This document shows, one piece after another, positions 23,740 to 49,178 of a stretch of DNA of 64,000 nucleotides. Position numbers and translations under genes: made by a program. This DNA comes from Tubulanus polymorphus (taxonomy: Eukaryota > Animalia > Nemertea). The DNA lies in NCBI RefSeq assembly GCF_964204645.1, contig NC_134026.1:14604150-14668149 (forward strand), in the 5' to 3' direction. Position 1 is the stretch's first letter, and each line of letters starts with the position of its first letter. The notes under the pieces were generated by a model. That model did no database searches. It saw nothing but the letters and a program-made list of their open reading frames with translations, and was not told the DNA's origin.

Positions 23740-23753
23740 AATATGTAAAATAA

Positions 23754-24516: not shown

Positions 24517-24533
24517 TTTTTTTCACTATATAA

Positions 24534-25076: not shown

Positions 25077-25124
25077 AAAATATATTCCTCCTATATAAGA
25101 AGTGCATATTTTTTTACTAAATAA

Positions 25125-25480: not shown

Positions 25481-25503
25481 TAATAATTTTTTTTGCTAAA
25501 TAA

Positions 25504-29128: not shown

Positions 29129-29426
29129 AAATTATTTAGATAAATCACATATTAGATTAAATTATTGTATAGGCCCTAATATATTAATAATTTCTAATGA
29201 TTTAGTATTAAAGATGGGAAATATAATTGGTTATAATAATCTAATTAAGACTGCAACAATAAATAATTCATTTGGATTGAATGATATAAATAAAAAGATT
29301 ATCACTGCTCCAAAATTAATGGAAGGTGAAAAAAATAAAAAACATATTCAATCAACAGAAACTAAAACTAAGAATATTAAATCAAATAATGATTCTAAAA
29401 TAAAAGATTACAATTCTACAGAAAAT

Positions 29427-29451
29427 GGTGCCGTACGGCACCCACACGGTG
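29427..29451 (+). mobile_element. Double-hairpin micro-element, copy 1 (in-frame in a gene)
   Basis: GGTGCCGTACGGCACCCACACGGTG flanked by AT/AT; absent at the orthologous site in copy C (~43657). Confidence 0.75.
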
Positions 29452-29597
29452 ATATAAAAACTGATATTATTCAACATGAAATAATTAAACTAAATGATGA
29501 TAATAAATCCCATGAAAATGCTAAATTAGCTATAACTTGTATAGGAATTGTAATCAGAGAAATATTATATTTTAAATTTTAATTTTTTATTATATAA

Positions 29598-31256
29598 ATG
29601 GAAGAAGATATTCCAATGGATACTTTTGGTGACGCCCCCGGTATAAGTGATGAACCACAACCTGATTTTAATGAAACTAATATTGATAATGATGATGGAT
29701 CAGAATATAATTCTAATTTAAATAATGATGAAGATGATGATTATGATTATGATGGAATTAATGCCGAAGTACGTGAAAAATTAAATAAATATTTAGAAGC
29801 TTCTGAAAGTGGTAGAATTACAACTAGAACAGAAAGAAAAGAATTAATGAATCTATTAGAAAAACAACAAGAAAAATATCCTGATAAACCCATGGAATTA
29901 TATAGAATGAAATCTAGAGTAACAGATACAATTGTTAACGAATTATTACCAAAAGAAGTAATATATGAAATTGATTCAGAAGGTGTTGTAATGCAAATTT
30001 TAGAAGATGACCCATTTTTCATGAATAATTTAGAATTCAAAAATGATTCATGGTATTATAATCTTGAATTAAATAGGAATACTGTAACAATTCAATTATC
30101 TAAAATGGGACAAGAAAATATGTATGAACCTGGAATGCGAGCATTATCTACAATTAAGGTTCAAAAGGCGGTAGAGAATTTCTCAGAATTATATGGAATG
30201 CACTCGATAGAATAAATGAACCAATTCCTAATATTGATATTAACAAATATTCACCGTTTAAAAATCCAAATCCAAATCCTACCGATGTTGATCCAGAAAT
30301 GGAAGAGTATGGAGATCGATTAGATAGATTAAGATCTTCAACACCCGAAACATCGAGAAGAGATATTCAACAAATTGATAATGATTCAAGTCAATTACAA
30401 TTAGTAAAACATTTTGATAGCATGTTAGATACAGTTCATTCATTTGAAGAAGAGATGAATAGTGTTTTAATAAATCGAATACAATCTTTACTAGAAAAAG
30501 GATTATTTGATTTAACTGATGATGAATTAGAAGCATTTCCTGAACAAGCACGTAGAGAAATTAAAGCTATGCAAGAATCAGCTGATAAAATTGCGCATGA
30601 TAAAAGTATAAGAGATATTAAAATTATAACTTTAGAAAAAGATAGAACTGATAAAATTAAAGAAATAGAACAACTAAAATTAGATAGAGATAATAAAGTT
30701 ATTGAAGAAATTGAATTTAAAAAAAGAAATGCATATTTAGAAAAAGAAATAGATGATTTAGAATATAACATAGAATTTCAGAAAGAAGAAATTAAATTAT
30801 TATTAAAATCATATGATTATAATATTAATAGATTAAAAGTTATTTTTAAAGATTTGTTGATAAAACCAAATTCTGAAATATCATTAAAAGATAGAATAAG
30901 ATTATCATTTAAATTAGAAGGTATAACAATTCTTTCAATTCTAACAGCTGTAACTTTGGTATTTACAACAATTGGTTTAGCTATATCAAATTCATTAAAA
31001 TCCACTCCTAAACCGGATAAACCCCCGAATGATAATAATTCTATACAAGATAAAGTTAAGGATGGTTTAAACAAATTAGCAAAATATTTATGAGAACTAT
31101 CTAAAAAATCTGCTGCAGCTTTACCCGATTGTTGGTTTTATATTGAAATCTGCAGGAAAAAAAATTAACTTTGCTGCTGAACATATTATTTTATTTCTAA
31201 TTACAGTTGTAAGTGCAATTATTTTTGGGTTAGTGAATATGATAAAAAATAGATAA
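29598..31256 (+). pseudogene. Large acidic/coiled-coil protein with C-terminal TM segments
   Basis: ORFs 29598-30215 and 30299-31093 plus tail; C-terminal half matches 44330-45050 (EGITILSILTAVT..., DKVKDGL..LAKYL). Confidence 0.75.
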
Positions 31257-31275
31257 TTAATTTTTTGTTAAATAA

Positions 31276-32290
31276 ATGAGTGGGAGTTACATAGATCCTT
31301 CTAAGAATCATAGAATATCTAATGCTATTAAAGCAGAAAGATCTCATCATATAATTACTCATAATCCTTCTAATATTAATCCCGATGAAACTTTATATGT
31401 TTGAAGCCATAGATTAACACAAAATACTTTTTATGTTCCAAATAGTATTTATTTATCAGCTGATATAAAAGTAACTGGTAATGATAATAATTATGTTGTT
31501 GATAATGTTGGAAGATATTTGATTAAAAAATGAACTATAAAGATTGGTCCAGAAACAGTTTTCTCATTAGGTGATTATAATTTATTTATGCATTATAAAG
31601 ATTTATGGTTAACTAAAGAAAATAGAAATAATATGATATTTCAAGGCATCCAATCAGAAAACCAAAATAAATTAAGATCTGAAGCCAATAATGCAGTAGT
31701 AGCCAATGACGTAGATAATTTGATAACAAGGATATATGGAAGCAAATATAAAATTCCATTAGACTTTGAATTGATAAATAATAATTCACCTTTATATAAA
31801 TATGCAATTCAAGAAGATGTTATATTTGAGATAACATTTGCTCCTGTAAATGAAATTTTTATATCAAGTATAATTAAAGATATGGGTTATAAATTATCGA
31901 ATATATGTTTAGAATATGATACAGTAACTGATGAAAATATTGCTAACACAATTCAAACTCAATACAATCAAGGATTTTCATTATTATTTGATTATACTGA
32001 TAAATTTAAAACTGTAACTATTAATGCACATGATGAAATTATTAATGAGAATATTAACTTCCCAAGAAGATCTATTAAAGGTATATTAATATTTTTTACT
32101 ATTGCAGCATATTCTAATGGCGCAATAAAGGTTGATAATTATTATAATCCTGAAATAACAAAAGTAGAAATAACTATCGAAGGAATAGCAAATAAAATAT
32201 TTTGTCAAGGAATGAGAATGATAGATCAGTGGCCAGAAATTAGAAAATATTTTATGAATGAAAAAGTAAAATCATCTGCAAATTGTAATA
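31276..32290 (+). pseudogene. Major capsid protein of Maverick A, 5' part (nonsense mutations, split by Academ)
   Basis: Colinear with the intact 415-aa ORF 45090-46337 up to ...SANCN; continues at 58826. Confidence 0.85.
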
Positions 32291-32987
32291 TAGTAGAGGA
32301 GCAGCCAGGTCCTATCTTGCAAAATAAGAGATTCTCATTGACACATTTGCTCTGCTCGGGATATTGTTATTTCGTGATAGGGGGGTCATGTACGGTTATG
32401 GTGATGGTCGTTTCCATGGTAACAGGCGGTGCGAAAATGGTTTAACGCCCCCTGTTGTCAGCCGAGGGAACTAAAATTGCATCATTTACTAATCTGCGAA
32501 TAAAACAAAGAGTTTTATAGGTATGGAAGTAATTTTTTTTTTCATTTTATTTAGATTTATCAGGGCTTTCATTTCATATATTCATATCGCGAAATTACGT
32601 ACAAGTCTGCGACAAAATCAAAAAGTTTCATCAAATTTGAGAAAATTGACCGTTTTTTTCGAGGCACCACCTCATGGAATTTGTATTAAAGCTCGCTTCC
32701 AAAAATTCTAAATCGTAATTTTAGACATTAATCATTATTGCGGAATTATATGCTTCACATTTATATCATTCCTTGATGATTATCTTAAACACTTTGGACA
32801 CAGTGACGTTTTAAAGTTGGAGAAGCGTGAATGTAGCACATCACCAAAAATACGACCATTGTTGGTTTTTCCAGTGATTCACGCAAACGTCAGTATCTCC
32901 TTGAAATATCAGTTTTAATATACAGTAAACCGGTCCCGGTAATCCACTCAACTCGGTAGAATTGCCATAAGATTCTCATTTGCAATA

Positions 32988-33162
32988 CAGTCAACCCCCG
33001 ATATTCCGCCCACATCGGCGCAGAACGATTTTGGCGGTATAGAGAGTATGGCGGTACATTATGGGTGTTTTACTATGTATTTGTTTTGAGATGTACATTG
33101 AGAAAACCTGGCGGTAGGCGGGGTTGCGGTAAATGGGAGGGCGGTATATTGGGGGTTCACTC
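32988..33162. mobile_element. Tc1/mariner (pogo/Tigger-like) MITE
   Basis: TA|CAGTCAACCCCCGATATTCCGCC ... GGCGGTATATTGGGGGTTCACTC|TA. Confidence 0.7.
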
Positions 33163-33266
33163 TAGATTAATTGCTAATTTGTTCTATTCGGTAACCACCA
33201 AATTTGGTGAAAAATAAAACTAATAGTGAGTCAAGCAATCAAAAACTCCTGGCATGTGCTGCAACA

Positions 33267-33314
33267 TTAACGACGACATTCCGACCCGTAACATAAACAT
33301 CCGACTGTACACGG
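33267..33314 (-). pseudogene. Last codons of the Academ ORF (PCTVGCLCYGSECRR*), separated by Maverick B
   Basis: Joins in frame to ...CKCTVSMCTKNCSCARANI at 52675-52680 and completes a Cys8/CXC finger. Confidence 0.9.
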
Positions 33315-33657
33315 TATATTAGTAATTAGAAGATGGCGTTTTCATACCAGAGGTCGAGAGGTCGAGACACCACTCATCACAGCTAGGCTCTAGTGAGAAC
33401 GGACGATTGCTCTGTGATACACATATACAGTGAGTGCGCGTAACAACAACTGCGCGTGGATAGATAGATACAGTGAGTCGCTACTGAGAACGGTTATGAA
33501 CGCGTGTGATGTTACTGTAGTACAGTGATTGCGTGTCAACTGTGCCAGGATAAATAGATGCAGTGAGGCTTGGGTGAGAACGGTTAATTGTGTGCTTGTT
33601 ATATACAAGGGGAAGTAATCCCCACTCATCACCACAAGTAATTTTTTTTCCTTATAA

Positions 33658-33983
33658 ATGGGAGATAGAAAAGCATTCTTAGCAACAATAAATAACGGAA
33701 TAAAACCAGCAAAAAACAATTTGAAATAAAAAAGTTAGTTGATGTTACAAAAGAAATTGAACATAAAATATTGAAATTAGAAAAGATAAAAACTAAATAT
33801 GGAGAGAAAGTATCAGCTAATTTAAGCTACTGCAATGTTAGTACATCGCGAGAATTTAAAGTATTTTTACCTCATAGATGGGTTTCATTGGGTACAGAGG
33901 AATTAAAAGATTTAGAAGGATTTAAAATAATCTATCATGGAAAAAATGAAGATGGCCATCATGATTTAGAAATTGTTGATTAA
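33658..33983 (+). pseudogene. 108-aa MGDRK protein, copy B (one frameshift)
   Basis: Matches the intact 49179-49505; ATG lies inside the TIR. Confidence 0.8.
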
Positions 33984-34089
33984 ATTAAAAAAACAAAATA
34001 AATTAATAAAAATAATGAATATCTAAAATCCGAAATGACTTATCTGGACAATTTAATTGCTCCGCATAGATAGACAAAAGTAGTGAGAT

Positions 34090-34113
34090 GGTGCCTATGG
34101 CACCCACATGGTG
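34090..34113 (+). mobile_element. Double-hairpin micro-element, copy 2
   Basis: GGTGCCTATGGCACCCACATGGTG flanked by AT/AT; empty site GAGATATTC in copy C (~49045-49053, reverse strand). Confidence 0.75.
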
Positions 34114-34125
34114 ATATTCAATTAA

Positions 34126-34503
34126 TTAAAAGAAATTATTTCTTTGCTTTTTTTCTAAAATATTAATCCATTTTTTTATTATCAATTTCGGAATTTCAGA
34201 AGTATTTTCATTTTTGATAGCAGTTGTTTCAGAATTATTAATATCATGAATTTTATTTGATTTCTTATACCAATTACACCAGATCAAAATGAATACAATT
34301 ACAAATCCAACTGTAAAATATGGACATTTATCAAATATTCTATTATTAGAAGGAGTAGAAATAACAATATTTTCACCATTTTTATTACTTATTTTTTCTT
34401 TTACAGCTTTTTTATATTCTTGTGATTTAATTACTAATTGCCGAGACCATTCAATTTGTTTCGGACTTCTCGGTTTTTTCTTCACTTCTTCCACCTTGTT
34501 CAT
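34126..34503 (-). CDS. Maverick single-TM basic protein (125 aa)
   Basis: TAAATG start; KKKPRSPKQIEWSRQL then TM YFTVGFVIVFILIW; disrupted homolog at 48643-49040. Confidence 0.7.
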   Translation of the reverse strand: MNKVEEVKKKPRSPKQIEWSRQLVIKSQEYKKAVKEKISNKNGENIVISTPSNNRIFDKCPYFTVGFVIVFILIWCNWYKKSNKIHDINNSETTAIKNENTSEIPKLIIKKWINILEKKQRNNFF

Positions 34504-35041
34504 TTATTATAGAAATATTTTTACTTTCAATATTTGAAAATGTTATAACTCCAGTTGATAATAATGTCATAAATCCACCTAATTGAAATGATAAATATCC
34601 AATCCATTTATTTAATTCGGTCATAACTAAATAATCATTTTTTAAATCGGAATATAATCTATTTTCATCTTGAATTGGCAGCATATAATTACATAATTTA
34701 CTATAACCTTTTACTACATTTTCTGATATCACGTGATTAATTCTAGCTGTTCTCGCGGTTTCATAAATCTTAAAATATCTAATAATTTCATCTGATTTCA
34801 TTGTATCTAATTCATTATAAGTTAAATTTTTACCGATAAAATTTTTACATTTTCCAGATGCTATTAATATTTCTAATTGATGTTTACAATAAAGATAATA
34901 TTCATAATTATTATTTGTTGTAACATTATTTAAAGCACCATCATCTGGAGTTAATTTTGTTTCTGTTATTCCTAAATCATCTAAAGTTTTTTCAATTGGA
35001 ACATCACCATTTTTAGATTTTATTTTCTTTTCACCTCCCAT
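34451..35041 (-). CDS. Maverick hypothetical protein with C-terminal hydrophobic helix (196 aa)
   Basis: T6-GTTATA-TAAATG start; homolog at 48104-48710. Confidence 0.75.
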   Translation of the reverse strand: MGGEKKIKSKNGDVPIEKTLDDLGITETKLTPDDGALNNVTTNNNYEYYLYCKHQLEILIASGKCKNFIGKNLTYNELDTMKSDEIIRYFKIYETARTARINHVISENVVKGYSKLCNYMLPIQDENRLYSDLKNDYLVMTELNKWIGYLSFQLGGFMTLLSTGVITFSNIESKNISIINEQGGRSEEKTEKSETN

Positions 35042-35054
35042 TTATATAACAAAA

Positions 35055-35335
35055 AATTAGTTGTGATGTTGCAACTAGAATGTAACTAGAATTCAACTAG
35101 ATTAACAAGTTAGTTGAAATATTGTTGTTTTTATTTATTTCTTGTTAAATCTAGTTGATTTTTGTTCCAACTACCAATAACTAGAATTCAACTAGAATGT
35201 AACTAAAAATATACTAGATTAACAAGCTAGTTAAAATATTGTTGAATTTTATTTGATTTTTTTTTCAAATACCAATAACTAGAATTCAACTAGATTGTAA
35301 CTAAATATGTAATAGATTAACAAACCTGTTGAATT
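35055..35335. repeat. Intergenic array of AACTAG-core repeats (copy B)
   Basis: Repeated AACTAGAATT/AACTAGAATGT/AACTAGATTAACAAG units in both orientations; rearranged counterpart at 47812-48085. Confidence 0.8.
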
Positions 35336-35364
35336 TAAATAAATTCATATTTAAATGGGTGTTG

Positions 35365-35922
35365 TTATCTAAATAGTATTTTTGATCTTTTAATATTTTT
35401 CAATTTATCCAGTGGAATAATATCATTTTCCTCAAGTGCATTTTTCATCGATTTTCTATCTTTATTGTAGAATAAAACTAGAAATCTAATGTTTTCTCTA
35501 AAGTCTGTAACATTTGAATTATATTTTTGATTTAAAACCCAAGTTGTTATCCCAAAATGTCTACCAGAAAAAGCTAAATAACATAACTCACTTTCTCTAA
35601 CTTTTGAATCATGTAGATTAGCACAATCATCTATAATGAATAATGTATTTGATCCTTTATAAATATCTATTGCTATTTTAATACAATAATCTAAATTTTC
35701 TTTTACTGTTTTAGGATCTAATATAATAAATTTATTATTTTTAGTAATATTTCTATCATAAGTTTGATTAAATTCATATGTTGGACAAAATAATACTATA
35801 TTATCAAAATAGTTTTTATAAACAGTTTCTAATAAATTTAATATAAAATAAGTTTTTCCACAATTTGTTACGCCAGAAATTAACATATTATGAGGCTCAA
35901 ATATAAATAATTCCTTATTCAT
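35365..35922 (-). CDS. FtsK/A32-like genome packaging ATPase (short deletion near C-terminus)
   Basis: Walker A ISGVTNCGKT, Walker B LFIIDD, SGRHFGIT..LNQ arginine-finger/sensor motif. Confidence 0.9.
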   Translation of the reverse strand: MNKELFIFEPHNMLISGVTNCGKTYFILNLLETVYKNYFDNIVLFCPTYEFNQTYDRNITKNNKFIILDPKTVKENLDYCIKIAIDIYKGSNTLFIIDDCANLHDSKVRESELCYLAFSGRHFGITTWVLNQKYNSNVTDFRENIRFLVLFYNKDRKSMKNALEENDIIPLDKLKNIKRSKILFR

Positions 35923-37050
35923 TTACATATTTTTAATTTTACTTGATAATATCCATTCCTTGAATTTATCTGGCCATCCAACCCATTTTACTAAAGAATA
36001 TTTTTTTCTTTTAATAGTTTTTGTTTTTAATACTTTTTCAATTTTATATTCTTGTTCTAGATTTTCAGTAGTTAAACTTAATTCTTCTTCGTAAAAGTAG
36101 CCATCAACTTCTTCACCATCTAAATCTTCTAATTTATAGACATATGGTTTTGTTGTTATTACCTTTTTTATTTTATATATTTCCCTAGTAAAATTTCGAT
36201 CGTATCCTTTGTCAAATATCTTTTTATACTTAGAAATTCTAACATTTTGACCAATTTTAAATTTAGGTTCACCAAAATCATCTACAAGAAATGCTCCATA
36301 TAAATTATTCCAAACAATTTCAGCATTTTCAGGTTTTCTAGCATCAATAGGTTTCATTCCAATAGAAGAATGATAAGAATTATTATATCCTTCTATCAAT
36401 TTTGGTAAAACATCAATCCATTTAAAAGTATTATTTGCTGTAAAATATTTCCACATTCTTGTTCTTAATGTTCTATTAAATCGTTCAACAACTGCTGCTT
36501 TTTTATCCGATTTTGTTGAAAAATATTTAATATTATGATTATCTAAGAGTTCATGAACAAGTGAATTATCAAACTCTTTTCCGTCATCAAATTGTATTTT
36601 TTCTGGTTTTAGTTTATCATCCGAAAGAAATTTTCTTAAAACATTTGATGTTTGTACAGCATCTTTTCTATAAAGTGGGAAGCTCCATACATAACGACTA
36701 AAAATATCAATTATATTCAATAACCACCAATAATCATTATTATCTTTCTTACCATTTTTCATATCAATTAAATCTCCTTGCCACTGTTGATCTACATAAC
36801 TTACCATAGTTTTACGCGTTTTATATTTTCCAACAATTTTTTTATGTGTTGTGTATGTTGGTTGTTCTAACATAAATTCATTTATATCTTTATATTTAAC
36901 TAAATTTTGTGGGATTATCTTATCTAATTTATCTTGTTTTACTTGACGCCATATATTTTTGGTAGAAGAATAAGCAACCGAACTCTCAGGGTTGTAATAT
37001 AAATTTCTTAAATATTGTTCTTTAGTATTAGGAGTTTTTTTACCGCCCAT
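35923..37050 (-). CDS. Retroviral-like (rve) integrase with C-terminal chromodomain, intact (375 aa)
   Basis: WQGDLIDM, IDIFSRY, IQFDDGKEF, KAAVVERFNRTLR; chromodomain YKIEKVL...LVKWVGWPDKFKEWI. Confidence 0.95.
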   Translation of the reverse strand: MGGKKTPNTKEQYLRNLYYNPESSVAYSSTKNIWRQVKQDKLDKIIPQNLVKYKDINEFMLEQPTYTTHKKIVGKYKTRKTMVSYVDQQWQGDLIDMKNGKKDNNDYWWLLNIIDIFSRYVWSFPLYRKDAVQTSNVLRKFLSDDKLKPEKIQFDDGKEFDNSLVHELLDNHNIKYFSTKSDKKAAVVERFNRTLRTRMWKYFTANNTFKWIDVLPKLIEGYNNSYHSSIGMKPIDARKPENAEIVWNNLYGAFLVDDFGEPKFKIGQNVRISKYKKIFDKGYDRNFTREIYKIKKVITTKPYVYKLEDLDGEEVDGYFYEEELSLTTENLEQEYKIEKVLKTKTIKRKKYSLVKWVGWPDKFKEWILSSKIKNM

Positions 37051-37080
37051 TTATATATCGTTAATTTTAACTTTATATTT

Positions 37081-37258
37081 CTAATATTGAATACTATCTA
37101 ATTGTGAATTTACAATATTTAATTGTGCGTCAGATATAATATAAATGTGCATTTTGAAATTTTTGTCTCCTCTTTTCTTTGTCATGAATAATTGTATTCC
37201 ATCTTTTGTGTTCTGTAGTTTTTTCCCAGAACCATGTAATGAATTATCCTCTGTTGTT
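37081..37258 (-). pseudogene. 3' end of Maverick B major capsid gene, truncated by Penelope
   Basis: Reverse complement of 46160-46337 (TTEDNSLHGSGKKLQN...LDSIQY*). Confidence 0.9.
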
Positions 37259-37318
37259 GAGGAGAGAATCCCACAATGATAATAAAAAGTCCGAAAATGA
37301 AACTTTGAGATAGTAGTT

Positions 37319-37362
37319 TATTCAACGTTTCGACTATATCCTAATAGTCATCTTCAGGAATA
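37319..37362 (-). ncRNA. Minimal type I hammerhead ribozyme (3' pLTR)
   Basis: UAUUC-CUGAAGA-U-GACUAU[UAGGAU]AUAGUC-GAAAC-GUU-GAAUA; palindromic AACGUU stem III. Confidence 0.8.
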
Positions 37363-37672
37363 ATGAGATACTACAGAAATTATGAGATATATATACAATC
37401 CAGAGACAAAGAGACTAATTCAAGTAATCAGAGATGATACAAACTAAAGGAAAATTAACGTAGAAACAGTTACACGCTAAAATAGATTAAAGGGAAGCAA
37501 ACTAAGGGGTGATTATAAACAACAATAGTGAGTATAAATATAAATGAAACTTAAAGTCAGTAGTAAAAAGAAAGACAAACTAAGGGGCACTTAAATTAAA
37601 ACAAAGGTGAATACAAGTTAAGTCAGAGACGAAATTGATGAGAGAACAAATAACAAATAATCAAAGGGGAAA

Positions 37673-40081
37673 TCAAGTGTTGAGTTTAACCAGTTTACAG
37701 AGGAATTTTGATATAAGTTTATTATGGGGTGAAAAACCATTATTAAGGTTTACAACGTTGTTCGAATTTTCAATAATTAATGCAGATTCCAAAATATGTC
37801 TTCTAGTTTTATCGCTGCAAGGGTAAACTAATTCAGCATTAGCAAAATCAAAATTGTGTGAAGTCTGAAAAACATGACTAGCAACTCCGCTTTCAAGTTT
37901 AAAGTTTTTTACATCTAATTTATGCTCTTTTATGCGTTGATTAAGATTCCGACCTGTTTCTCCTATATATACTTTGTCGCAAACTTTACAAGGTATTTTA
38001 TAAATTCCACAGTTTAGGGATTCGGTTTTCGGTTTGTTGTTAATCAATATGTTACTAAGTTTATTATTGTATTTAAAGATGAGTTGTTTATTTAGTGACC
38101 GAAGAGAAACTTTAGAATTCTCGAGGAAAGGTACATACGGTACAATGATAGGCTGTTTATCGGTAGCCAACGTAGGAGTTCTAAGGTTGTTATTTCTAAA
38201 ATGCGTAGTACGAGCTTTAAGTAGAGCTTTTTTCAATAGGAAATCGGGGTAGGCAAGTTTTTTGAGAGATTGGTTAATATGGTGAATTTCATCGGGTAGA
38301 AATGAGGGGTCGCAAATTCTCAAAGCGCGAAGAAATAATCCTTGAGCTAAACCGAGTTTAATATCCGGAGAAGTAAAAGAGAAGTAATGGAGGTAGGATT
38401 CAGTGTTGGTAGGTTTCCTATAAACCGCGAATTTCAAAAAGGATCCACAGTTAAAAATCAAAACATCCAGAAAAGGTATTTTACTATTAGATTCCCATTC
38501 ATACGTAAAAGCCAGAGACGGGTAAAGGGAGTTTAAATATATAAGAAAGTTATCAACATTGAAGTCAAAGGGAACCAAAGCCAGAACATCGTCAACATAT
38601 CTGAGCCAGATTTTAGGGTGAATATCAGTGTAAAGAGGCAATATTTCAGATTCAACATGTTCTAGGAATAAATTAGCTAGAATAGGACTTAGAGGATTTC
38701 CCATAGCGATACCGAATGTCTGTTCGTAAAAACAATTGTTGAATTCAAAAAAGGAGTCCGTCGTACAAATAGAGATAAGGTCGATGATACAATCCGTAGG
38801 AATGCCGAAGTTAATGTTAAGTGATGGTAATCTGCGTTTTAAGAAATCAAGAGTAGGTCCAAGAGGAACATTGGTAAAAAGGGAAGTAACATCAAATGAT
38901 ATAAATTTGTCGTTGCCAGGGATAATATTCTTAATACGTTCAAGTAAGTGTTGATTATGGCGAAGGTGCGACGGAGAGAACGAACCGAGCACCGGAGATA
39001 ACTGTTTCGCGAGAAATTTAGATAACCGGTATGTAGGAGAATTACAATTGGAGACTATAGGGCGCAGTGGAACATTATCTTTATGAATTTTAGGCAATCC
39101 ATAGATATATGGTAAAGAGGGAAGACGTGAATGGAACTTATTCAGAGTTTCTTTAGCGGAGGGGAAACGTTTAATAATATCCGAAAGACTTCTGTTGAAA
39201 TTAGCTTGCATACGAGGAAGAGGATTCGATTTAAGTTTCTTATAAACACCAGGATTATCCAAGAGAGATTGCATTTTAACATTATAATTATCCAGATCTA
39301 AAATCACAATCTTGCCACCTTTATCAGCCTTAGATATTTTAATAGTCTTTAACTTCCGTAGTTCTTGGAGGGCGAGCCGAAATCGACGAGGTAGATATTC
39401 AAAAAGGTTCCTGTTGAGTTGATCGCATATAGCCTGTAGATTCATGAATATAAAGTTATAGTCCAAACTGTTCGGAGATGATTTGCGATATTCCAATTGG
39501 GTGACAAAGTCTAAAACATGTTTATCTTGATGAGGAAGAGAAAAATTCAAACCGTAGCCGAGAAGTTGACACTGAGTAGAAGATAACGTGGTTGAAGACA
39601 AATTTACTATGTTTTTGGTGTTGCTAAATCTAGTCCAAGGGCTGGAATCAATGAGTTTATTCAGTTGGTTGGTAAGATCCACGGACTTTCTGTGCTGATG
39701 ATATTTTCCAGAGCCTTGAACAATAGTGGAGAGCGATTTCCAGAGGAATAGGTCCGGTACGTGTGACTTCAAATAATTTTGAGATTGACGGAATTTGTAG
39801 AACTGATAGTTACAGTCTTCCTTAGCACGATCTATAGCGAATTTGAGTTGCTTGTTAGCTTCGGGTGGAAACGCAGAGCTGGAGTCGTATTTCCAAATCC
39901 AAGAAAGTGATCGCGGAACCACTTTTTCGGCATAACACTCCTGAAGGAACTTGACTTTACTTTTAGCAGTCCTGGATTTGATATAGCATTTCTCATAATT
40001 TCGGAAGCTAGCGATGAGGTACGGGAACGTGAAGAAGAAGAATTTTAATACGATATTTCGATCCGTGGGTAGCATGATCAC
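37673..40081 (-). CDS. Intact Penelope polyprotein: reverse transcriptase + GIY-YIG endonuclease (802 aa)
   Basis: IVNLS..LLGYGLNFS, KADKGG, IYGLPKIHK, SFDVTSLFTNVP, GIAMGNPLSP, WLRYVDD, CGIYKIPC..C.KVYIGETGR; no stops. Confidence 0.97.
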   Translation of the reverse strand: MIMLPTDRNIVLKFFFFTFPYLIASFRNYEKCYIKSRTAKSKVKFLQECYAEKVVPRSLSWIWKYDSSSAFPPEANKQLKFAIDRAKEDCNYQFYKFRQSQNYLKSHVPDLFLWKSLSTIVQGSGKYHQHRKSVDLTNQLNKLIDSSPWTRFSNTKNIVNLSSTTLSSTQCQLLGYGLNFSLPHQDKHVLDFVTQLEYRKSSPNSLDYNFIFMNLQAICDQLNRNLFEYLPRRFRLALQELRKLKTIKISKADKGGKIVILDLDNYNVKMQSLLDNPGVYKKLKSNPLPRMQANFNRSLSDIIKRFPSAKETLNKFHSRLPSLPYIYGLPKIHKDNVPLRPIVSNCNSPTYRLSKFLAKQLSPVLGSFSPSHLRHNQHLLERIKNIIPGNDKFISFDVTSLFTNVPLGPTLDFLKRRLPSLNINFGIPTDCIIDLISICTTDSFFEFNNCFYEQTFGIAMGNPLSPILANLFLEHVESEILPLYTDIHPKIWLRYVDDVLALVPFDFNVDNFLIYLNSLYPSLAFTYEWESNSKIPFLDVLIFNCGSFLKFAVYRKPTNTESYLHYFSFTSPDIKLGLAQGLFLRALRICDPSFLPDEIHHINQSLKKLAYPDFLLKKALLKARTTHFRNNNLRTPTLATDKQPIIVPYVPFLENSKVSLRSLNKQLIFKYNNKLSNILINNKPKTESLNCGIYKIPCKVCDKVYIGETGRNLNQRIKEHKLDVKNFKLESGVASHVFQTSHNFDFANAELVYPCSDKTRRHILESALIIENSNNVVNLNNGFSPHNKLISKFLCKLVKLNT

Positions 40082-40175
40082 GATAGGTAAAACACAATAT
40101 CCGTGTTGACGCGATGAGGAGAGAATCCCACAATGATAATAAAAAGTCCGAAAATGAAACTTTGAGATAGTAGTT

Positions 40176-40219
40176 TATTCAACGTTTCGACTATATCCTA
40201 ATAGTCATCTTCAGGAATA
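40176..40219 (-). ncRNA. Minimal type I hammerhead ribozyme (upstream pLTR copy)
   Basis: Identical to 37319-37362. Confidence 0.8.
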
Positions 40220-40529
40220 ATGAGATACTACAGAAATTATGAGATATATATACAATCCAGAGACAAAGAGACTAATTCAAGTAATCAGAGATGATACAAA
40301 CTAAAGGAAAATTAACGTAGAAACAGTTACACGCTAAAATAGATTAAAGGGAAGCAAACTAAGGGGTGATTATAAACAACAATAGTGAGTATAAATATAA
40401 ATGAAACTTAAAGTCAGTAGTAAAAAGAAAGACAAACTAAGGGGCACTTAAATTAAAACAAAGGTGAATACAAGTTAAGTCAGAGACGAAATTGATGAGA
40501 GAACAAATAACAAATAATCAAAGGGGAAA

Positions 40530-41809
40530 TCAAGTGTTGAGTTTAACCAGTTTACAGAGGAATTTTGATATAAGTTTATTATGGGGTGAAAAACCATTAT
40601 TAAGGTTTACAACGTTGTTCGAATTTTCAATAATTAATGCAGATTCCAAAATATGTCTTCTAGTTTTATCGCTGCAAGGGTAAACTAATTCAGCATTAGC
40701 AAAATCAAAATTGTGTGAAGTCTGAAAAACATGACTAGCAACTCCGCTTTCAGGTTTAAAGTTTTTTACATCTAATTTATGCTCTTTTATGCGTTGATTA
40801 AGATTCCGACCTGTTTCTCCTATATATACTTTGTCGCAAACTTTACAAGGTATTTTATAAATTCCACAGTTTAGGGATTCGGTTTTCGGTTTGTTGTTAA
40901 TCAATATGTTACTAAGTTTATTATTGTATTTAAAGATGAGTTGTTTATTTAGTGACCGAAGAGAAACTTTAGAATTCTCGAGGAAAGGTACATACGGTAC
41001 AATGATAGGCTGTTTATCGGTAGCCAACGTAGGAGTTCTAAGGTTGTTATTTCTAAAATGCGTAGTACGAGCTTTAAGTAGAGCTTTTTTCAATAGGAAA
41101 TCGGGGTAAAAGAGAAGTAATGGAGGTAGGATTCAGCGTTGGTAGGTTTCCTATAAACCGCGAATTTCAAAAAGGATCCACAGTTAAAAATCAAAACATC
41201 CAGAAAAGGTATTTTACTATTAGATTCCCATTCATACGTAAAAGCCAGAGACGGGTAAAGGGAGTTTAAATATATAAGAAAGTTATCAACATTGAAGTCA
41301 AAGGGAACCAAAGCCAGAACATCGTCAACATATCTGAGCCAGATTTTAGGGTGAATATCAGTGTAAAGAGGCAATATTTCAGATTCAACATGTTCTAGGA
41401 ATAAATTAGCTAGAATAGGACTTAGAGGATTTCCCATAGCGATACCGAATGTCTGCTCGTAAAAACAATTGTTGAATTCAAAAAAGGAGTCCGTCGTACA
41501 AATAGAGATAAGGTCGATGATACAATCCGTAGGAATGCCGAAGTTAATGTTAAGTGATGGTAATCTGCGTTTTAAGAAATCAAGAGTAGGTCCAAGAGGA
41601 ACATTGGTAAAAAGGGAAGTAACATCAAATGATATAAATTTGTCGTTGCCAGGGATAATATTCTTAATACGTTCAAGTAAGTGTTGATTATGGCGAAGGT
41701 GCGACGGAGAGAACGAACCGAGCACCGGAGATAACTGTTTCGCGAGAAATTTAGATAACCGGTATGTAGGAGAATTACAATTGGAGACTATAGGGCGCAG
41801 TGGAACATT
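40530..41809 (-). pseudogene. Truncated, internally deleted second copy of the Penelope ORF
   Basis: ORFs 41090-41869 and 40530-41093 are almost identical to the C-terminal part of the 802-aa protein. Confidence 0.95.
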
Positions 41810-41946
41810 AGTCGAAACGTTGAATAAACTACTATCTCGAAGTTTCATTTTCGGACTTTTTATTATCATTGTGGGATTCTCTCCTCAGTTATTGTTATAT
41901 TTGTTGCTTATAAGTTTACTAATTAGTAATTTTTTTTGCTAAATAA

Positions 41947-42372
41947 ATGGATGATAATATTGATATTATTCCTCATGATATAAATAAAACTAAATTAAAA
42001 ATATATTTAGAAAAACAAATATTAGAATTTGAAAGTGATTTAAAGATAAAAAAGAAAAAATATTTAAAAAGTAAAATTATATATTATCTTATTATTAGTG
42101 GTTCGGTTACAATTAGTTCTGTAATAACATTTCTAGCAATATTCAGTCCATTAACACCTTTAGCTATATTATTTGGTGTATTAGGATTAAGTTCAAGTGT
42201 TTTAACTGGTATAAGTTCAAAATTAAATATAAAAAGTAATAAAGAAAAAATTAAAACTAATATAAAAGAAATTAATAAATTGAAGAATACACTAGATTAT
42301 ATAATAAGTTCAAATGGTCATATAACAGTTGAAGAACAAGATAACTTATTAAAAGAATTAATAAATTATTAA
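41947..42372 (+). CDS. Two-TM coiled-coil protein (141 aa)
   Basis: Intact; T8-GCTAAA-TAAATG; homolog of 25504-25923. Confidence 0.8.
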   Translation: MDDNIDIIPHDINKTKLKIYLEKQILEFESDLKIKKKKYLKSKIIYYLIISGSVTISSVITFLAIFSPLTPLAILFGVLGLSSSVLTGISSKLNIKSNKEKIKTNIKEINKLKNTLDYIISSNGHITVEEQDNLLKELINY

Positions 42373-42388
42373 TTTTTTAATTATATAA

Positions 42389-43786
42389 ATGGTAGATAGT
42401 TTTCCAAAAGCTTTCCAATATAATAAATCAATTAAATATATTCCAGCAATAGATTTTAATAAAGATATTACATATAGAAATGAAGTTTTAGATTCATTAA
42501 TTGATTTATATATTTATGTTACTGAAAGTAATAATTTTCATGTAAAGATGGAAAATATATTCAATGTTTATGAAATTAATTTTGAAAAAGAATTAAGTAA
42601 AGCAAAATTATGGATGTTAAAATCAAATATGCAATTCTGGCAAAACCAATTAAATTTTGCTGTTTATTGCGCAACAACAGGGTGCAGAATAAGTTGGAAT
42701 GATCATTTAAATAAACCAAGTTTACCATTAATATTATCACTCTTTAGATTTCATACATACTTTCAAATAAGATTAATATTAAATGAATTAGAGTGTCCTT
42801 TACCAGGGTCTAGATATTGTAAAGAATTAGATAATAACATTAATTTATCAAAGTATTATAAAATATGTAATGAATTTAATATAGATATAAATAATTCTGA
42901 TTTTAGATCAAAGATGGGAACAATTACAGGGGGAGATTTATCTAAAGTAGAGAAAGCTTTGGATGCAATGAATAATTCATCATTTCCAATCGGAGGTTTT
43001 GCTGTCCCTTATACTAAAAAATATAGAAAAGAAATAAAAAATACTAACTCAAAAACGTTTAAATGGAATGAAATACCAAAATATTATATTTATATCAAAC
43101 AACAACAAAATAATGATGGTTGGGTTAATTTTATTTTAGAAAATAGTGAAGGTTTTACTAAAGCTGGTATACAAAGAATAAATCAATCTATTAGAACTTA
43201 TTTGATATGTATTCTAGGATCACAGGTTGAAACAAGATCCCCAATAATTGGAAATTTAAATACATCATTTGATACACAGAAACAATTCAAAGTATTATTT
43301 GAAGATTCAATTCATAATGATAAAAATAGATCGATTCCAGAAAACATTGTAAGATATCAAAATTATTTAGATAAATCTCATGTAAGACTAAATTATTGTA
43401 TAGGCCCTAATCTATTAATTATTTCTAATGATTTAGTATTAAAGATGGGAAATATAATTGGTTATGATAATCTAATTAAAACTGCAACAATAAATAATTC
43501 ATTTGAATTAAATGATATAAATAAAAAGATTATTACTGCTCCAAAATTAATGGAAGGTGAACAAAATAAAAAACATATTCAATCAACAGAAACTAAAACT
43601 AAGAATATTAAATTGCATAATGATTCTAAAATAAAAGATTACAATACATCAGAAAATATTAGAACTGATAATATTCAACATGAAATAATTAAAACTTATA
43701 ATGATAATAAATCCCATGAAAATACTAAATTAGCTTTAACTTGTATAGGAATTGTTATAGGAGGAATATTATATTTTAAATTTTAA
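42389..43786 (+). CDS. Conserved Maverick protein of unknown function with C-terminal TM anchor (465 aa)
   Basis: Intact ORF; WQNQLNFAVYCATTGC, FRFHTYFQ, GFTKAGIQRINQSIRTY..CILGSQV; C-terminal LALTCIGIVIGGILYF. Confidence 0.85.
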   Translation: MVDSFPKAFQYNKSIKYIPAIDFNKDITYRNEVLDSLIDLYIYVTESNNFHVKMENIFNVYEINFEKELSKAKLWMLKSNMQFWQNQLNFAVYCATTGCRISWNDHLNKPSLPLILSLFRFHTYFQIRLILNELECPLPGSRYCKELDNNINLSKYYKICNEFNIDINNSDFRSKMGTITGGDLSKVEKALDAMNNSSFPIGGFAVPYTKKYRKEIKNTNSKTFKWNEIPKYYIYIKQQQNNDGWVNFILENSEGFTKAGIQRINQSIRTYLICILGSQVETRSPIIGNLNTSFDTQKQFKVLFEDSIHNDKNRSIPENIVRYQNYLDKSHVRLNYCIGPNLLIISNDLVLKMGNIIGYDNLIKTATINNSFELNDINKKIITAPKLMEGEQNKKHIQSTETKTKNIKLHNDSKIKDYNTSENIRTDNIQHEIIKTYNDNKSHENTKLALTCIGIVIGGILYFKF

Positions 43787-43802
43787 TTTTTTTATTATAT
43801 AA

Positions 43803-45093
43803 ATGGATGTAGAAGGTGGAGAAGATATTGGAATGGATCCTTTTGATGAACCTGGTATAAGTGATGAACAACCACCTGATTCTGATGAAACAAGTCTTAA
43901 TGACGGTAATGAGTCAGAATATAATAATAATTTAAATATGCCTGATTATATTAAAAATGCAGAATCACAATTAAATCCTGAAAATTTAGACCCAGGTTTA
44001 GTAAAAAAAGATTTAAATAATTTAAACAAAATAGCTAAATTAGAAGATATAATTGAAAAATCTAAACTTAACATAAATGATGAAGACGTTGGACCTTTAG
44101 TAGACAAATTAAGATTTTTAGATAATGGTAAATGTTATTATAATTTGAAAGGTGATTATTATATTGATATCACTTATAAAAATAATTTAAAAAAAATATT
44201 AGCGGAATCAACTTAAATCAAATAAAGTTCCAATTGAAAAACTTTTAACGAATGGATTAATTGATGCAACAGATCAAGAATTAGAAGATTTAGATATATT
44301 TTCTGATAAAGCAATTAGAGAATTTGAAAGTATAAGACATGCATCTGATAAAATTGCGCATGATAAAAGTATAAGAGATTTAAAAATTAGAACTTTAGAA
44401 GATGAATTATTTAAATCAAGAAAAGAATCGGAACAACTAAAATTAGATAGAGATAATAAAGTTATTGAAGAAATCGAATTTAAAAAAAGAAATGCGTATT
44501 TAGAAAAAGAAAAAGATGATTTAGAATATAACATAGAATTACAAAAAGGAGAAATTAAATTATTATTAAAATCATATGATTATAATATTAATAGATTAAA
44601 AGTTATTTTTAAAGATTTGTTGATAAAACCAGATTCTGAAATATCATTGAAAGATAGAATAAAGTTATTATTTAAATTAGAAGGAATAACAATTCTTTCA
44701 ATTCTAACAGCTGTAACTATGTTATTTACAACAATTAGTTTAGCAATATCAAATTCTTTGAAATCTACGCCTACACCCAATAAACCGGATAAACCCCCGA
44801 ATGATAATAATTCTATACAAGATAAAGTTAAGGATGGTTTGAAGAAATTAGCAAAATATTTATGGGAACTATTTAAAAAATCTGCTGCAGCATTGCCGGG
44901 AGTTATTGCATCAATTGTTGGTTTTATATTGAAATCTGCAGGAAACATTATTAACTTTGCTGCTGAAAATATTATTTTATTTTCAATTACAGTTGTAAGT
45001 GCTATTATTTTTGGGTTAGTGAATATGATATCAAAAAGATATCAAGAAAAAATAATAAAAAATGAATCATTAATTTTTTTGTTAAATAAATGA
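43803..45093 (+). pseudogene. Acidic/coiled-coil/multi-TM protein (broken near 44216)
   Basis: ORFs 43803-44216 and 44617-45093 with open coiled-coil sequence between them; homolog of 29598-31256. Confidence 0.75.
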
Positions 45094-46337
45094 GTGGGAG
45101 TTATATAAGTCCTTCTAAGATTTCTAGAATATCTAATGCTATTGGAGCAGAAAGATCACATCATATAATTACTCATAACCCTTCAAATATTAATCCCGAT
45201 GAAACCTTATACGTTAGAATTCCTCAATTGACACAAAATACTTTTTATGTTCCAAATAGTATTTATTTATCAGCTGATATAAAAGTAACTGGCCATGATA
45301 ACAATTATGTTGTTGATAATGTTGGGAGATATTTGATTAAAAAATTAACTATAAAGATTGGTCCAGAAACAGTTTTCTCATTAGATGATTATAATTTATT
45401 TATGCATTATAAAGATTTATGGTTAACTAAAGAAAATAGAAATAATATGATATTTCAAGGCATCCAATCAGAAAACAATAATAAATTAAGATCTGAAGCC
45501 AATAATGCAGTAGTAACTAGTGCCGCAGATAATTTGATAAAAAAGATTTATGGAAGCAAATATAAAATTCCATTAGACTTTGAATTGATAAATAATAATC
45601 CACCTTTATATAAATATGTAATTCAAGAAGATATTATATTTGAGATAACAATTGCTCCTGTAAATGAAATTGTATTATCTAGCGTTGTTAAAGATATGGG
45701 TTATAAATTATCAAATATATGTTTAGAATATGACACAGTAACTAATGAAAATATTGCTAGCACAATTCAAACTCAATACAATCAAGGATTTTCATTATCA
45801 TATGATTATATTGATAAATCTAAAACTGTAACTATTAATGCAAATGATGAAATAATTAATGAGAGTATTAACTTCCCAAGAAGATCTATTAAAGGTATAT
45901 TAATATTTTTTACCATTGCAACATATTCTAATGGTGCAATAAAGGTAGATAATTATTATAATCCTGAAATAACAAAAGTAGAAATAACTATCGAAGGAAT
46001 AGCAAATAAAATATTTTGTCAAGGAATGAGAATGATTGATCAATGGCCAGAAATAAGAAAACATTTTATGAATGAAAAAGTAAAATCATTTGAAAATTGT
46101 AATATTAATCAAATTGATTATTATACCGGCAATAAATACGCATTATGGTTAGATTTTAGAACAACAGAGGATAATTCATTACATGGTTCTGGGAAAAAAC
46201 TACAAAATACAAAAGATGGAATACAATTATTCATGACAAAGAAAAGAGGAGACAAAAATTTCAAAATGCACATTTATATTATATCTGACGCACAATTAAA
46301 TATTGTAAATTCACAATTAGATAGTATTCAATATTAG
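45090..46337 (+). CDS. Putative major capsid protein (double jelly roll), intact (415 aa)
   Basis: Size, beta-strand pattern (LYVRIP, IYLSADIKV, LIKKLTIKIG, VIFEITF, ICLEYD, SIKGILIFF, KVEITIEG, ALWLDFR) and position next to integrase/ATPase; present in all three copies. Fold not computed. Confidence 0.75.
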   Translation: MSGSYISPSKISRISNAIGAERSHHIITHNPSNINPDETLYVRIPQLTQNTFYVPNSIYLSADIKVTGHDNNYVVDNVGRYLIKKLTIKIGPETVFSLDDYNLFMHYKDLWLTKENRNNMIFQGIQSENNNKLRSEANNAVVTSAADNLIKKIYGSKYKIPLDFELINNNPPLYKYVIQEDIIFEITIAPVNEIVLSSVVKDMGYKLSNICLEYDTVTNENIASTIQTQYNQGFSLSYDYIDKSKTVTINANDEIINESINFPRRSIKGILIFFTIATYSNGAIKVDNYYNPEITKVEITIEGIANKIFCQGMRMIDQWPEIRKHFMNEKVKSFENCNINQIDYYTGNKYALWLDFRTTEDNSLHGSGKKLQNTKDGIQLFMTKKRGDKNFKMHIYIISDAQLNIVNSQLDSIQY

Positions 46338-46367
46338 AAATATAAAGTTAAAATTAACGATATATAA

Positions 46368-47206
46368 ATGGGCGGTAAAAAAACTCCTAATACTAAAGAA
46401 CAATATTTAAGAAATTTATATTACAACCCTGAGAGTTCGGTTGCTAATTCTTCTACCAAAAATATATGGCGTCAAGTAAAACAAGATAAATTAGATAAGA
46501 TAATCCCACAAAATTTAGTTAAATATAAAGATATAAATGAATTTATGTTAGAACAACCAACATACACAACACATAAAAAAATTGTTAGAAAATATAAAAC
46601 TCGTAAAAGTATGGTAAGTTATGTAGATCAACAGTGGCAAGGAGATTTAATTGATATGAAAAATGTTTAGAAAGATAATAATGATTATTGGTGGTTATTG
46701 AATATAATTGATATTTTTAGTCGTTATGTATGGAGAACAAGAATGTGGAAATATTTTACAGCAAATAATACTTTTAAATGGATTGATGTTTTACCAAAAT
46801 TGATAGAAGGATATAATAATTCTTATCATTCTTCTATTGGAATGAAACCTATTGATGCTAGAAAACCTGAAAATGCTGAAATTGTTTGGAATAATTTATA
46901 TGGAGCATTTATTTGACAAGGGATACGATCGAAATTTTACTAGGGAAATATATAAAATAAAAAAGGTAATAACAACAAAACCATATGTCTATAAATTAGA
47001 AGATTTAGATGGTGAAGAAGTTGATGGCTACTTTTACGAAGAAGAATTAAGTTTAACTACTGAAAATCTAGAACAAGAATATAAAATTGAAAAAGTATTA
47101 AAAACAAAAACTATTAAAACAAAAAAAATATTCTTTAGTAAAATGGGTTGGATGGCCAGATAAATTCAATGAATGGATATTATCAAGTAAAATTAAAAAT
47201 ACATAA
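46368..47206 (+). pseudogene. Integrase of copy C, catalytic core deleted
   Basis: Matches 35923-37050 but jumps from SRYVW to RTRMW; further frameshifts. Confidence 0.9.
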
Positions 47207-47811
47207 ATGAATAAGGAATTATTTATATTTGAGCCTCATAATATGCTAATTTCTGGCGTAACAAATTGTGGAAAAACTTATTTTATATTAAATTTATTAG
47301 AAACTGTTTATAAAAAATATTTTGATAATATAGTATTATTTTGTCCAACATATGAATTTAATCAAACTTATGATAGAAATATTACTAGAAATAATAAATT
47401 TATTATATTAGATCCTAAAACAGTAAAAGAAAATTTAGATAATTGTATTAAAATAGCAATAGATATTTATAAAGGATCAAATACATTATTCATTATAGAT
47501 GATTGTGCAAATTTATATGATTCAAAAATTAGAGTGAGTTATGTAATTTAGCTTTTTCTGGCAGACATTTTGGGATAACAACTTGGGTTTTAAATCAAAA
47601 ATATAATTCAATTGTTAAAGATTTTAGAGAAAACATTAGATTTTTAGTTTTATTCTACAATAAAGATAGAAAATCGATGAAAAATGCACTTGAGGAAAAT
47701 GATATTATTCCACATGATTTACATAATGAATATATGGATAAGTTGAAAAATATTAAAAGATCAAAATTACTATTTAGATAACAACACCCATTTAAATATG
47801 AATTTATTTAA
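47207..47811 (+). pseudogene. Packaging ATPase of copy C, frameshifted near 47530
   Basis: GVTNCGKT, LFIIDD, then SGRH in a shifted frame. Confidence 0.9.
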
Positions 47812-48085
47812 ATTCAACTATCTTGTTAATCTAATTGAATTCTAGTTACATTCTAGTTATTGGTAGTTGGAACAAAAATCAACTAGATTCAACAATATTT
47901 TAACTAGCTTGTTAATCTAGTTTAATTCTAGTTACATTCTTGTTAAATCTAGTTGATAGTAGTTGAAACAAAAATCAACTAGATTTAACAAGAAATAAAC
48001 AAAAACAACAATATTTCAACTAGCTTGTTAATCTAGTTGAATTCTAGTTACATTCTAGTTGAATTCTAGTTGCAACAACACAACT
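47812..48085. repeat. Intergenic AACTAG/CTAGTT repeat array (copy C)
   Basis: Same units as 35055-35335 in a different arrangement. Confidence 0.8.
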
Positions 48086-48103
48086 AATTTTTTTGTTATA
48101 TAA

Positions 48104-49040
48104 TTGGTAGGTGAAAAGAAAACAAAATCTAAAAATGGTGATGTTCCAATTGAAAAAACTTTAGATGATTTAGGAATAACAGAAAACAAATTAATTCCAG
48201 ATGATGGTGCTTTAAATAATGTTACAACAAATAATAATTATGAATATTATCTTTATTGTAAACATCAATTAGAAATATTAATAGCATCTGGAAAATGTAA
48301 AAATTTTACTAGTAAAAATTTAACTCATAATGAATTAGATACAATGAAATCAGATGAAATTATTAGATTATTTAAGATTAATGAAGCCGCGAGAACAGCT
48401 AGAATTAATGACGCGATATCAGAAAATGTAGTAAAAGGTTATAGTAAATTATGTAATTATATACTACCAATTGAAGATGAAAATAGATTATATTCCGATT
48501 TAAAAAAATGATTATTTTGTTATGACTGAATTAAATAAATGGATTGGATATTTATCATTTCAATTAGGTGGATTTATGACATTATTATCAACTGGGGTTA
48601 TAACATTTTCAAATATTGAAAGTAAAAATATTTCTATAATAAATGAGCGAGGTGGAAGAAGTGAAGGAATTAACTGTGAAGAAAAAACCGAGATCACAGA
48701 AACAAATTGAATGGTCTCGGCAATTAGGAATTAAATCACAAGAATATAAAAAAGCTGTAAAAGAAAAAATAAGTAATAAAAATGGTGAAAATATTGTTAT
48801 TTCTACTCCTTCTAATAATTGAATATTTGATAAATGTCTATATTTTACAGTTGGATTTGTAATTGTATTCATTTTGATTGGGTGTAATTGGTATAAGAAA
48901 TCAAATAAAATTCATGATATTAATAATTCTGAAACAACTGCTATCAAAAATGAAAATACTTCTGAAATTCCAAAATTGACAATAAAAAAAATGGATTAAT
49001 ATTTTAGAAAAAAAGCAAAAAAAAATAATTTTTTTAATTA
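48104..49040 (+). pseudogene. Disrupted homologs of the 196-aa and 125-aa proteins
   Basis: Reverse-complement match to 34126-35041; TAAATG mutated to TAATTG. Confidence 0.8.
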
Positions 49041-49067
49041 ATTGAATATCTCACTACTTTTGTCTAT

Positions 49068-49094
49068 CACTGTGTGGGTGCTGTTTATGGCACC
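49068..49094 (-). mobile_element. Double-hairpin micro-element, copy 3
   Basis: Minus strand GGTGCCATAAACAGCACCCACACAGTG flanked by AT/AT; empty site CATAGATAGAC in B (~34065-34075). Confidence 0.7.
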
Positions 49095-49178
49095 ATCTAT
49101 GCGGAGCAATTAAATTGTCCAGATAAGTCATTTCGGATTCTAGATATTCATTATTTTTATTAATTTATTTTTTAAAAT

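Follow-up and report, generated by a model that had tools for sequence, protein, structure and literature searches.

Do three short GC-rich inserts, each lying in a different Maverick (Polinton) copy of the nemertean Tubulanus polymorphus, belong to a mobile element in its own right, and how might an element of only about 27 nt move? The question is raised by a 64-kb stretch of this genome (assembly GCF_964204645.1, contig NC_134026.1, positions 14,604,150 to 14,668,149, forward strand; hereafter the window, numbered from its first letter), in which an initial annotation, made from the letters alone, described a double-hairpin motif at three places. The three inserts constitute a real, very small insertion family of demonstrated polarity: they share their sequence, have exact ends and face empty sister sites, and at site A the insert is a gain. 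Mobility or repeated insertion of some kind is nearly certain, and the double-hairpin element is probably its own copying unit.

Three inserts and their empty sister sites

A pattern search for the double-hairpin motif returns three matches in the window, compared with 0.00 expected and with no match in any of 100 shuffled sequences, and their coordinates and strands are exactly those of the initial annotation. A consensus-free structure scan for the arrangement "AT, GC-rich hairpin, adjacent hairpin, AT" recovers the same three copies and no others across the 64 kb (0 in 30 local shuffles). The inserted lengths are 27 nt for insert A, 26 nt for insert B and 29 nt for insert C, each insert being named after the Maverick copy in which it lies. 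The motifs and the corresponding empty sites are as follows.

29427-29451, plus strand: motif of insert A; with both flanking ATs, 29425..29453
29425..29453, plus strand: structure of insert A, a perfect 16-bp palindrome with a 3-bp hairpin directly after it; three CpGs retained
34090-34113, plus strand: motif of insert B; with both ATs, 34088..34115; between two convergent genes
49068-49094, minus strand: motif of insert C; with both ATs, 49066..49096; in the same intergenic gap as insert B, 18 bp away in homologous coordinates
43656-43657, plus strand: empty site for insert A, a single AT in Maverick copy C; clean 27-nt gap
49048-49049, minus strand: empty site for insert B, a single AT in Maverick copy C
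34070-34071, plus strand: empty site for insert C, a single AT in Maverick copy B

Alignment of the Maverick copies reveals AT on both sides of each insert and a single AT at the empty sister site in 3/3 cases, as had been proposed. Inserts B and C do share an intergenic region, although their spacing, given earlier as about 19 bp, is 18 bp when measured from AT to AT. At site A, the nine residues that the insert encodes are missing from 5/5 close homologs (64-71% identical) of the protein encoded by the 465-aa gene, although all five align across this site, which indicates that insert A is a gain and not an ancestral feature. Two more distant homologs, among the seven best, also lack the nine residues, in a region where they align poorly. 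The reciprocal empty sites and the five close outgroup proteins bear out the proposal of separate insertions rather than ancestral presence followed by deletions. Additionally, one contig of run X1 and one of run X2 do not carry insert C, and the latter has a single AT at site B, as read from two joints. A putative half copy near 23305 (at 23306-23314) does not hold up: with 0.69 matches expected, this single additional one is at chance level, and no left hairpin lies next to it. Neither lone termini nor further copies are found in the approximately 36 kb of non-Maverick DNA in the window, and no longer element bearing these ends was found in the window.

Insert A had been described as adding the peptide GAVRHPHGD in frame to the 465-aa gene. 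The in-frame peptide is present, but the open reading frame (ORF) that contains it is a 122-aa 3′ piece of a gene already broken in Maverick copy A, and the whole 465-aa ORF is found in Maverick copy C. Five of the six frames of the 27-nt insert are open. Signatures of the insert peptide gave one five-residue match in 165 homologous proteins, which was judged to be chance, and a search with the insert-bearing protein piece gave no match. The 27-nt insert lies in frame within a gene, whereas the frame-breaking inserts of 26 and 29 nt are both intergenic (chance approximately 0.015, calculated with hand-set spans of the broken genes). This pattern of length and location is a hint of filtering by selection and suggests that insertion took place while the Maverick lineage was still being filtered in this way. 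In the same gene, a 66-nt in-frame stretch of Maverick copy C (42921-42986), with CAAT at both bounds, is missing from Maverick copy A and from 7/7 aligned homologs; its sequence is unrelated to the double hairpin.

In the orientation of the element, the three sites read A-AT-A, G-AT-A and G-AT-A, and all of them conform to the pattern A-R-AT-A, which fits 7.9% of the oriented ATs in Maverick DNA and was drawn after the fact from the same three sites.

The motif pattern was also sought in other DNA. Three scans of viral contigs gave 0, 0 and 2 matches. Metagenome contigs gave five matches, from two groups of related contigs with a GC content of 52-69%, and among 185,579 prokaryote genomes there are 14 matches, one per genome (GC 61-77%), and no multi-copy family. 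None of the outside matches, which all lie in DNA of 52-77% GC, has tblastx similarity to the window or contains the 16-bp palindrome of insert A, and all of them were treated as chance. No locus with related Maverick DNA was recovered by searching, and Rfam gave 0 matches for the element. The statement that no such element had been described in Polintons agrees with a literature search, which also found none in animal nuclear DNA, within a coverage that excluded most subscription journals and figures. Three of the metagenome contigs (L003, positions 85-111, L004 and L005; GC 52-55%) are related to one another and have one pattern match in common at the same place, which was taken as chance.

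Predicted fold, substitutions and CpG positions

The minimum-energy fold predicted for the element strand consists of two adjacent hairpins in all three copies. Relative to insert A, inserts B and C carry five substitutions, all of which are transitions at the three CpGs of A, and the length differences are in hairpin 1, where B is shorter by 1 nt and C longer by 2 nt. The earlier observation that loops vary while stems are kept is accurate for the outer stems, which are invariant, but not for the inner pairs of the 16-bp palindrome, which are broken in B and C. Compensatory change is found in 0/11 pairs across the three copies. Because all five substitutions are CpG transitions without a compensatory pair, the pattern of kept stems and varying loops would not establish selection on structure.

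Transitions have changed 5/6 CpG positions in B and C relative to A. In contrast, the DNA flanking B and C has kept 27/41 CpGs, and the host DNA has a CpG observed/expected ratio of 1.07. Given these shared flanking sites and the absence of CpG depletion in the host DNA, plain in-place decay of CpGs was rejected as a sufficient explanation (chance 2.5e-5 to 0.005 for assumed rates of 0.085-0.25, calculated post hoc with copy A as the starting state). Visual inspection places the changed cytosines in loops or at loop-closing positions, on one strand per copy, CpG and loop positions being confounded. These cytosine changes would fit either the deamination of a folded single strand or a long residence of the donor copy in methylated DNA, between which two copies cannot decide.

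Possible mechanisms of insertion

The mechanism favoured here, tentatively and at somewhat less than even confidence, is that of a protein-less element of approximately 27 nt that is inserted into A|T by HUH-type single-strand transfer and that spread while the Maverick lineage was under selection. The three inserts would be copies of one non-autonomous double-hairpin element in different AT sites of the Maverick family. The element would travel as folded single-stranded DNA and would be joined between A and T by an HUH-type strand-transfer enzyme supplied from elsewhere, with entry probably occurring before selection on the Maverick lineage had ceased. If the element is taken to begin with T and to end with A, the A before it and the T after it belonging to the host, folding would bring both of its ends together at the base of the hairpin pair, a layout well suited to single-strand nicking and rejoining. 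Additionally, its ends do not form inverted repeats, an argument against a DDE cut-and-paste transposase. Rep/HUH transposons generally have hairpins and target dinucleotides in a specific orientation (PMC10288648).

A comparison with Helitrons reveals both likenesses and differences. In Helraiser, a 19-bp palindrome lies 11 nt from the right end and insertion occurs at A|T (PMC4778049). The right-end geometry of Helitron1, a palindrome of 16-20 bp about 11 nt before the 3′ end, is also found in insert A, in which the 16-bp GC-rich palindrome is located 10 nt before the end, followed by T. In appearance, the element is like a Helitron right end on its own. Insertion at A|T without duplication, as in Helitron1, fits 3/3 sites; a duplication of AT would give the same result, and the two are indistinguishable from sequence alone. 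The opposite strand of the element begins with TC and ends with ACCA, not CTRR. The shortest non-autonomous Helitron consensus encountered is 162 bp (PMC6544945), compared with 27 nt here. The order of parts in Helitron2, HINE and DINE-1 elements, namely a 5′ T, asymmetric inverted arms and a short 3′ hairpin, fits the element (PMC3627910, PMC4067079, PMC11417382), whereas their target, T|T, is found at 0/3 sites, the element using A|T (PMC4067079, PMC11417382). The arms of Helitron2 and HINEs are 8-15 bp, with the 3′ arm 20-30 bp from the end (PMC3627910), whereas those of insert A are 8 bp, abut each other and lie 10 nt from the end; the available supplement text of PMC4067079 contains no matching arm. 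Replitrons, described from plants, algae and protists, combine a Rep HUH transposase with direct terminal repeats that are short; here, GGTG is found at both ends of inserts A and B but not of insert C, and no transposase was seen. The element is not claimed to be a Helitron because the termini, the T|T target, the left end and a Rep/helicase match are missing. Likenesses to the heptamer of recombination signal sequences and Transib and to the guide words of IS200/605 were considered and set aside: the fit is limited to one end, and the pairing simply follows from the presence of the small hairpin. Ciliate internal eliminated sequences were likewise dropped, the ORFs being in the standard code and the flanking dinucleotide being AT and not TA.

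Several observations weigh against transfer of an independent element by an HUH-type enzyme. There are three copies in total, which is a small number, and only 5/527 ATs in Maverick copy B are as near to insert B as the site of C; being 18 bp apart, B and C may represent one arrival and a local hop instead of two independent samples. The folds have z-scores of just -1.2 to -1.6, the centroid structures of the element strand do not contain the second hairpin of 3 bp, and the lack of compensatory pairs points in the same direction. No match to an HUH or Helitron Rep/helicase family was found among the 43 ORF translations of the window. The 5′-TC and 3′-CTRR of Helitron1 are replaced by TG...GTGA on the element strand, and Helraiser cannot move without its left end (PMC4778049), a region that the element does not have. 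The initial annotation took the element to be mobile within Maverick genomes; all three copies are indeed inside Mavericks, yet the chance of this within the window is 0.09 by length, 0.15 by AT sites and 0.25 by target word, and confinement is not significant. The argument from intergenic location is weakened if the insert lengths changed after insertion. Finally, the reads neither show nor exclude further copies of the insert: placement of reads and contigs covered 7,246 bases of Maverick copy C, with insert C close to the end of that stretch, and no insert-bearing reads are among those listed (12 of 236 indels, 15 of 89 joints and 24 of 1826 loose ends).

The inserts could instead stem from a host-wide mobile element, either a collapsed non-autonomous derivative of a rolling-circle (Helitron-like) host transposon or a free-standing micro-element, for which the AT-rich Maverick DNA, once integrated, was an incidental target. 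This explanation is unlikely, but it has several points in its favour. The chance figures for Maverick confinement are just 0.09-0.25, and because no Maverick-tied match is found in the viral, metagenome and prokaryote collections, the sequence of the element is possibly private to the host. The layout of T, inverted arm, subterminal arm and 3′ hairpin is that of Helitron2 (PMC3627910), and HINEs derive from Helentrons by simple deletion (PMC4067079). However, the approximately 36 kb of non-Maverick DNA in the window contains 0 copies and 0 lone termini, the target is A|T and not T|T, and both frame-breaking copies avoid genes, which dead Mavericks would not enforce. Alternatively, each insert may be what remained of the ends of a larger cut-and-paste transposon, one that duplicates a 2-bp AT target, after its excision and repair; this would account for the AT on both sides, for the GG with which the element starts, as ISL2EU repeats usually do (PMC4482050), and for the position of the sole indels in the middle of hairpin 1, where the repair joint would be. 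Such a scar is nonetheless quite unlikely: the ISL2EU target A|AT|T fits 0/3 sites (PMC4482050), the ends carry GGTG on the left and CAC on the right of the other strand and are neither inverted repeats nor GG at both ends as in ISL2EU, three scars with the same 25 bases are improbable, and a longer element with these ends is not present in the window. Additionally, GGTGCC/GGCACC is absent from the supplement text of PMC4482050, figures being outside that search.

A low probability is assigned to templated repair, for which the element would need no transposase of its own. In multi-copy Maverick DNA, cleavage of the hairpins or the stalling of replication at them would be followed by patching with a short RNA or DNA copy, a route proposed for hairpin elements of fungal mitochondria, possibly by a Penelope reverse transcriptase (RT) or by the endonuclease VII-like domain of Maverick PolB. 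An intact-looking Penelope ORF with RT and GIY-YIG domains is nested in the window, a PolB piece has a weak Endonuclease_7 match (E 0.0075), and the Maverick family is multi-copy, but the neighbourhood of Penelope and PolB is no evidence of a role. The exact ends and the flanking repeat of always 2 bp also argue against such repair, as target-primed insertion usually leaves ragged 5′ ends and variable duplications, and Rfam has no match. RNA routes have been proposed for Allomyces elements and for yeast GC42 (PMC2800124, PMC4478555). Still less probable, and to be regarded as very improbable, is that the motif is old in the Maverick or that B and C are one rearranged insertion, the empty sites being precise deletions between two ATs. 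By eye, B and C do differ as if the order of an 18-nt stretch and the element had been swapped, with 4-bp microhomologies at the joints; against this, the outgroup proteins do not contain insert A, more events are needed than two insertions, and further contigs have empty B and C sites, by reading and among the joints listed.

A stronger form of the favoured mechanism is that Polintons/Mavericks carry their own class of double-hairpin parasites of approximately 27-30 nt, which would move as folded single-stranded DNA during Maverick replication, would be sized to keep frames open and would be a nuclear, viral counterpart of the mitochondrial double-hairpin elements; this form appears doubtful. 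The alternative term of the initial annotation, a mobile cis-signal, is not supported, each insert occurring in a single Maverick copy. The comparison with mitochondrial double-hairpin elements (DHEs) and GC clusters drawn in the initial annotation does stand, since all are short GC-rich inserts with two adjacent hairpins, the second stem here being just 3 bp and weak. Among known systems these are the nearest of their kind, ahead of the bacterial REPINs and small dispersed repeats. Very small palindromic inserts are also found in bacteria, as in the small dispersed repeats of Nostoc and the Rickettsia palindromic elements. Paquin et al. are said, in papers that cite them, to have described DHEs in fungal mitochondrial DNA in 2000. 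The mitochondrial DHEs of Allomyces, other chytrids and fission yeast are short and GC-rich with two adjacent hairpins, have a patchy occurrence in AT-rich multi-copy DNA and are so far without an enzyme (PMC10085805, PMC2800124). In contrast to these organellar elements, the element here is nuclear, resides in an endogenous virus-like element nested among nuclear retro- and DNA transposons, and has AT on both sides, whereas the Allomyces elements have no flanking duplications (PMC2800124). The yeast mitochondrial GC42 is similar in being palindromic, with a 2-bp flanking repeat (AG there, AT here) and a single dinucleotide at empty sites, but it is 42 nt compared with approximately 27 nt and differs in sequence and compartment (PMC4478555). 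Its changes are concentrated in loops, the structural constraint has been shown with hundreds of changes, and its mechanism is open (PMC4478555). REP/REPIN elements are also very small palindromic inserts, but bacterial, and REPINs are tied to HUH (RAYT) transposases (PMC3116915).

The movement of 20-50-nt hairpin elements without a gene of their own has been a puzzle since the mitochondrial GC clusters and DHEs. The 31,075 reads of run X5 on 7,246 bases of Maverick copy C reach a depth of up to approximately 900, from 1.9 billion letters, which indicates that the Maverick family has many copies. Such a family would supply naturally occurring alleles, filled and empty, within a single genome, from which the target rule, copying versus cutting and the dependence on Maverick activity could be read by counting. 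If real as a unit, the element is several-fold shorter than the non-autonomous Helitrons encountered in the literature consulted (162 bp and up) and falls below ordinary repeat annotation. If Mavericks carry their own class of hairpin parasites, the mobility mechanism would be readable from hundreds of filled and empty sites; if the inserts are scars of a larger transposon, the interest falls to that of a curiosity.

Surrounding Mavericks and other nested elements

Self-alignment and ORF scans reveal that the window is a nest of mobile elements, with decayed Maverick copies, a large terminal-repeat transposon and a Penelope element. The Maverick parts are as follows.

20290..32291, plus strand: Maverick copy A, decayed; PolB pieces, homolog of the 465-aa gene in pieces, 5′ part of the capsid gene; ends approximate
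near 58821-60230: resumption of Maverick copy A behind the large inserted transposon
33316..37258, minus strand: Maverick copy B; terminal repeat, small genes, A32-type ATPase, rve integrase, end of the capsid gene
41888..49845, plus strand: Maverick copy C; 465-aa gene, capsid gene with a weak Capsid_N match, integrase and ATPase (both broken), small genes, terminal repeat
49846..52679, minus strand: Maverick piece D; terminal repeat 97.7% like that of copy B; 5′ part of PolB

The identification as Mavericks is supported by matches to rve (E 1e-10) and Pox_A32 (E 4e-12) and by a weak match to Capsid_N (E 0.007). The PolB pieces, which are without a Pfam match, are presumably such, as judged from motifs in their translations. 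The 350-bp terminal repeats at 33316 and 52679 are those that are 97.7% alike. One capsid relative that carries a name is from a bivalve, with 39% identity. Endonuclease VII-type nucleases cut branched DNA; the Endonuclease_7 match mentioned above is in the 5′ piece of PolB at 49837-51270 and is below the cut-off. A 152-bp imperfect palindrome at 20292-20443, on the left edge of Maverick copy A, starts with AGTAAT like the terminus of copy B and is a candidate hairpin end or mini-element. The region 36286-37258 of copy B is 99% identical to 46160-46913 of copy C over the integrase and the capsid end, compared with 92.5% elsewhere, which suggests that a recent conversion or inversion may have occurred between the two copies.

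The large DNA transposon, putatively Academ-like, has inverted repeats of approximately 540 bp (96%) at 32329-32868 and 58253-58794; it splits the capsid gene of Maverick copy A, and B, C and D lie within it. The protein neighbours of its 405-aa ORF are all unnamed and come from Cnidaria, Arthropoda and Mollusca. Together with the transposon content and the bivalve capsid relative, these neighbours would point to an invertebrate animal as host. The Penelope element (37258-41887) is young, with an 800-aa ORF containing the RT and GIY-YIG domains and internal repeats that are 99.7-99.9% alike. Short self-inverted repeats are clustered at 10977-11547, between retroelement fragments.

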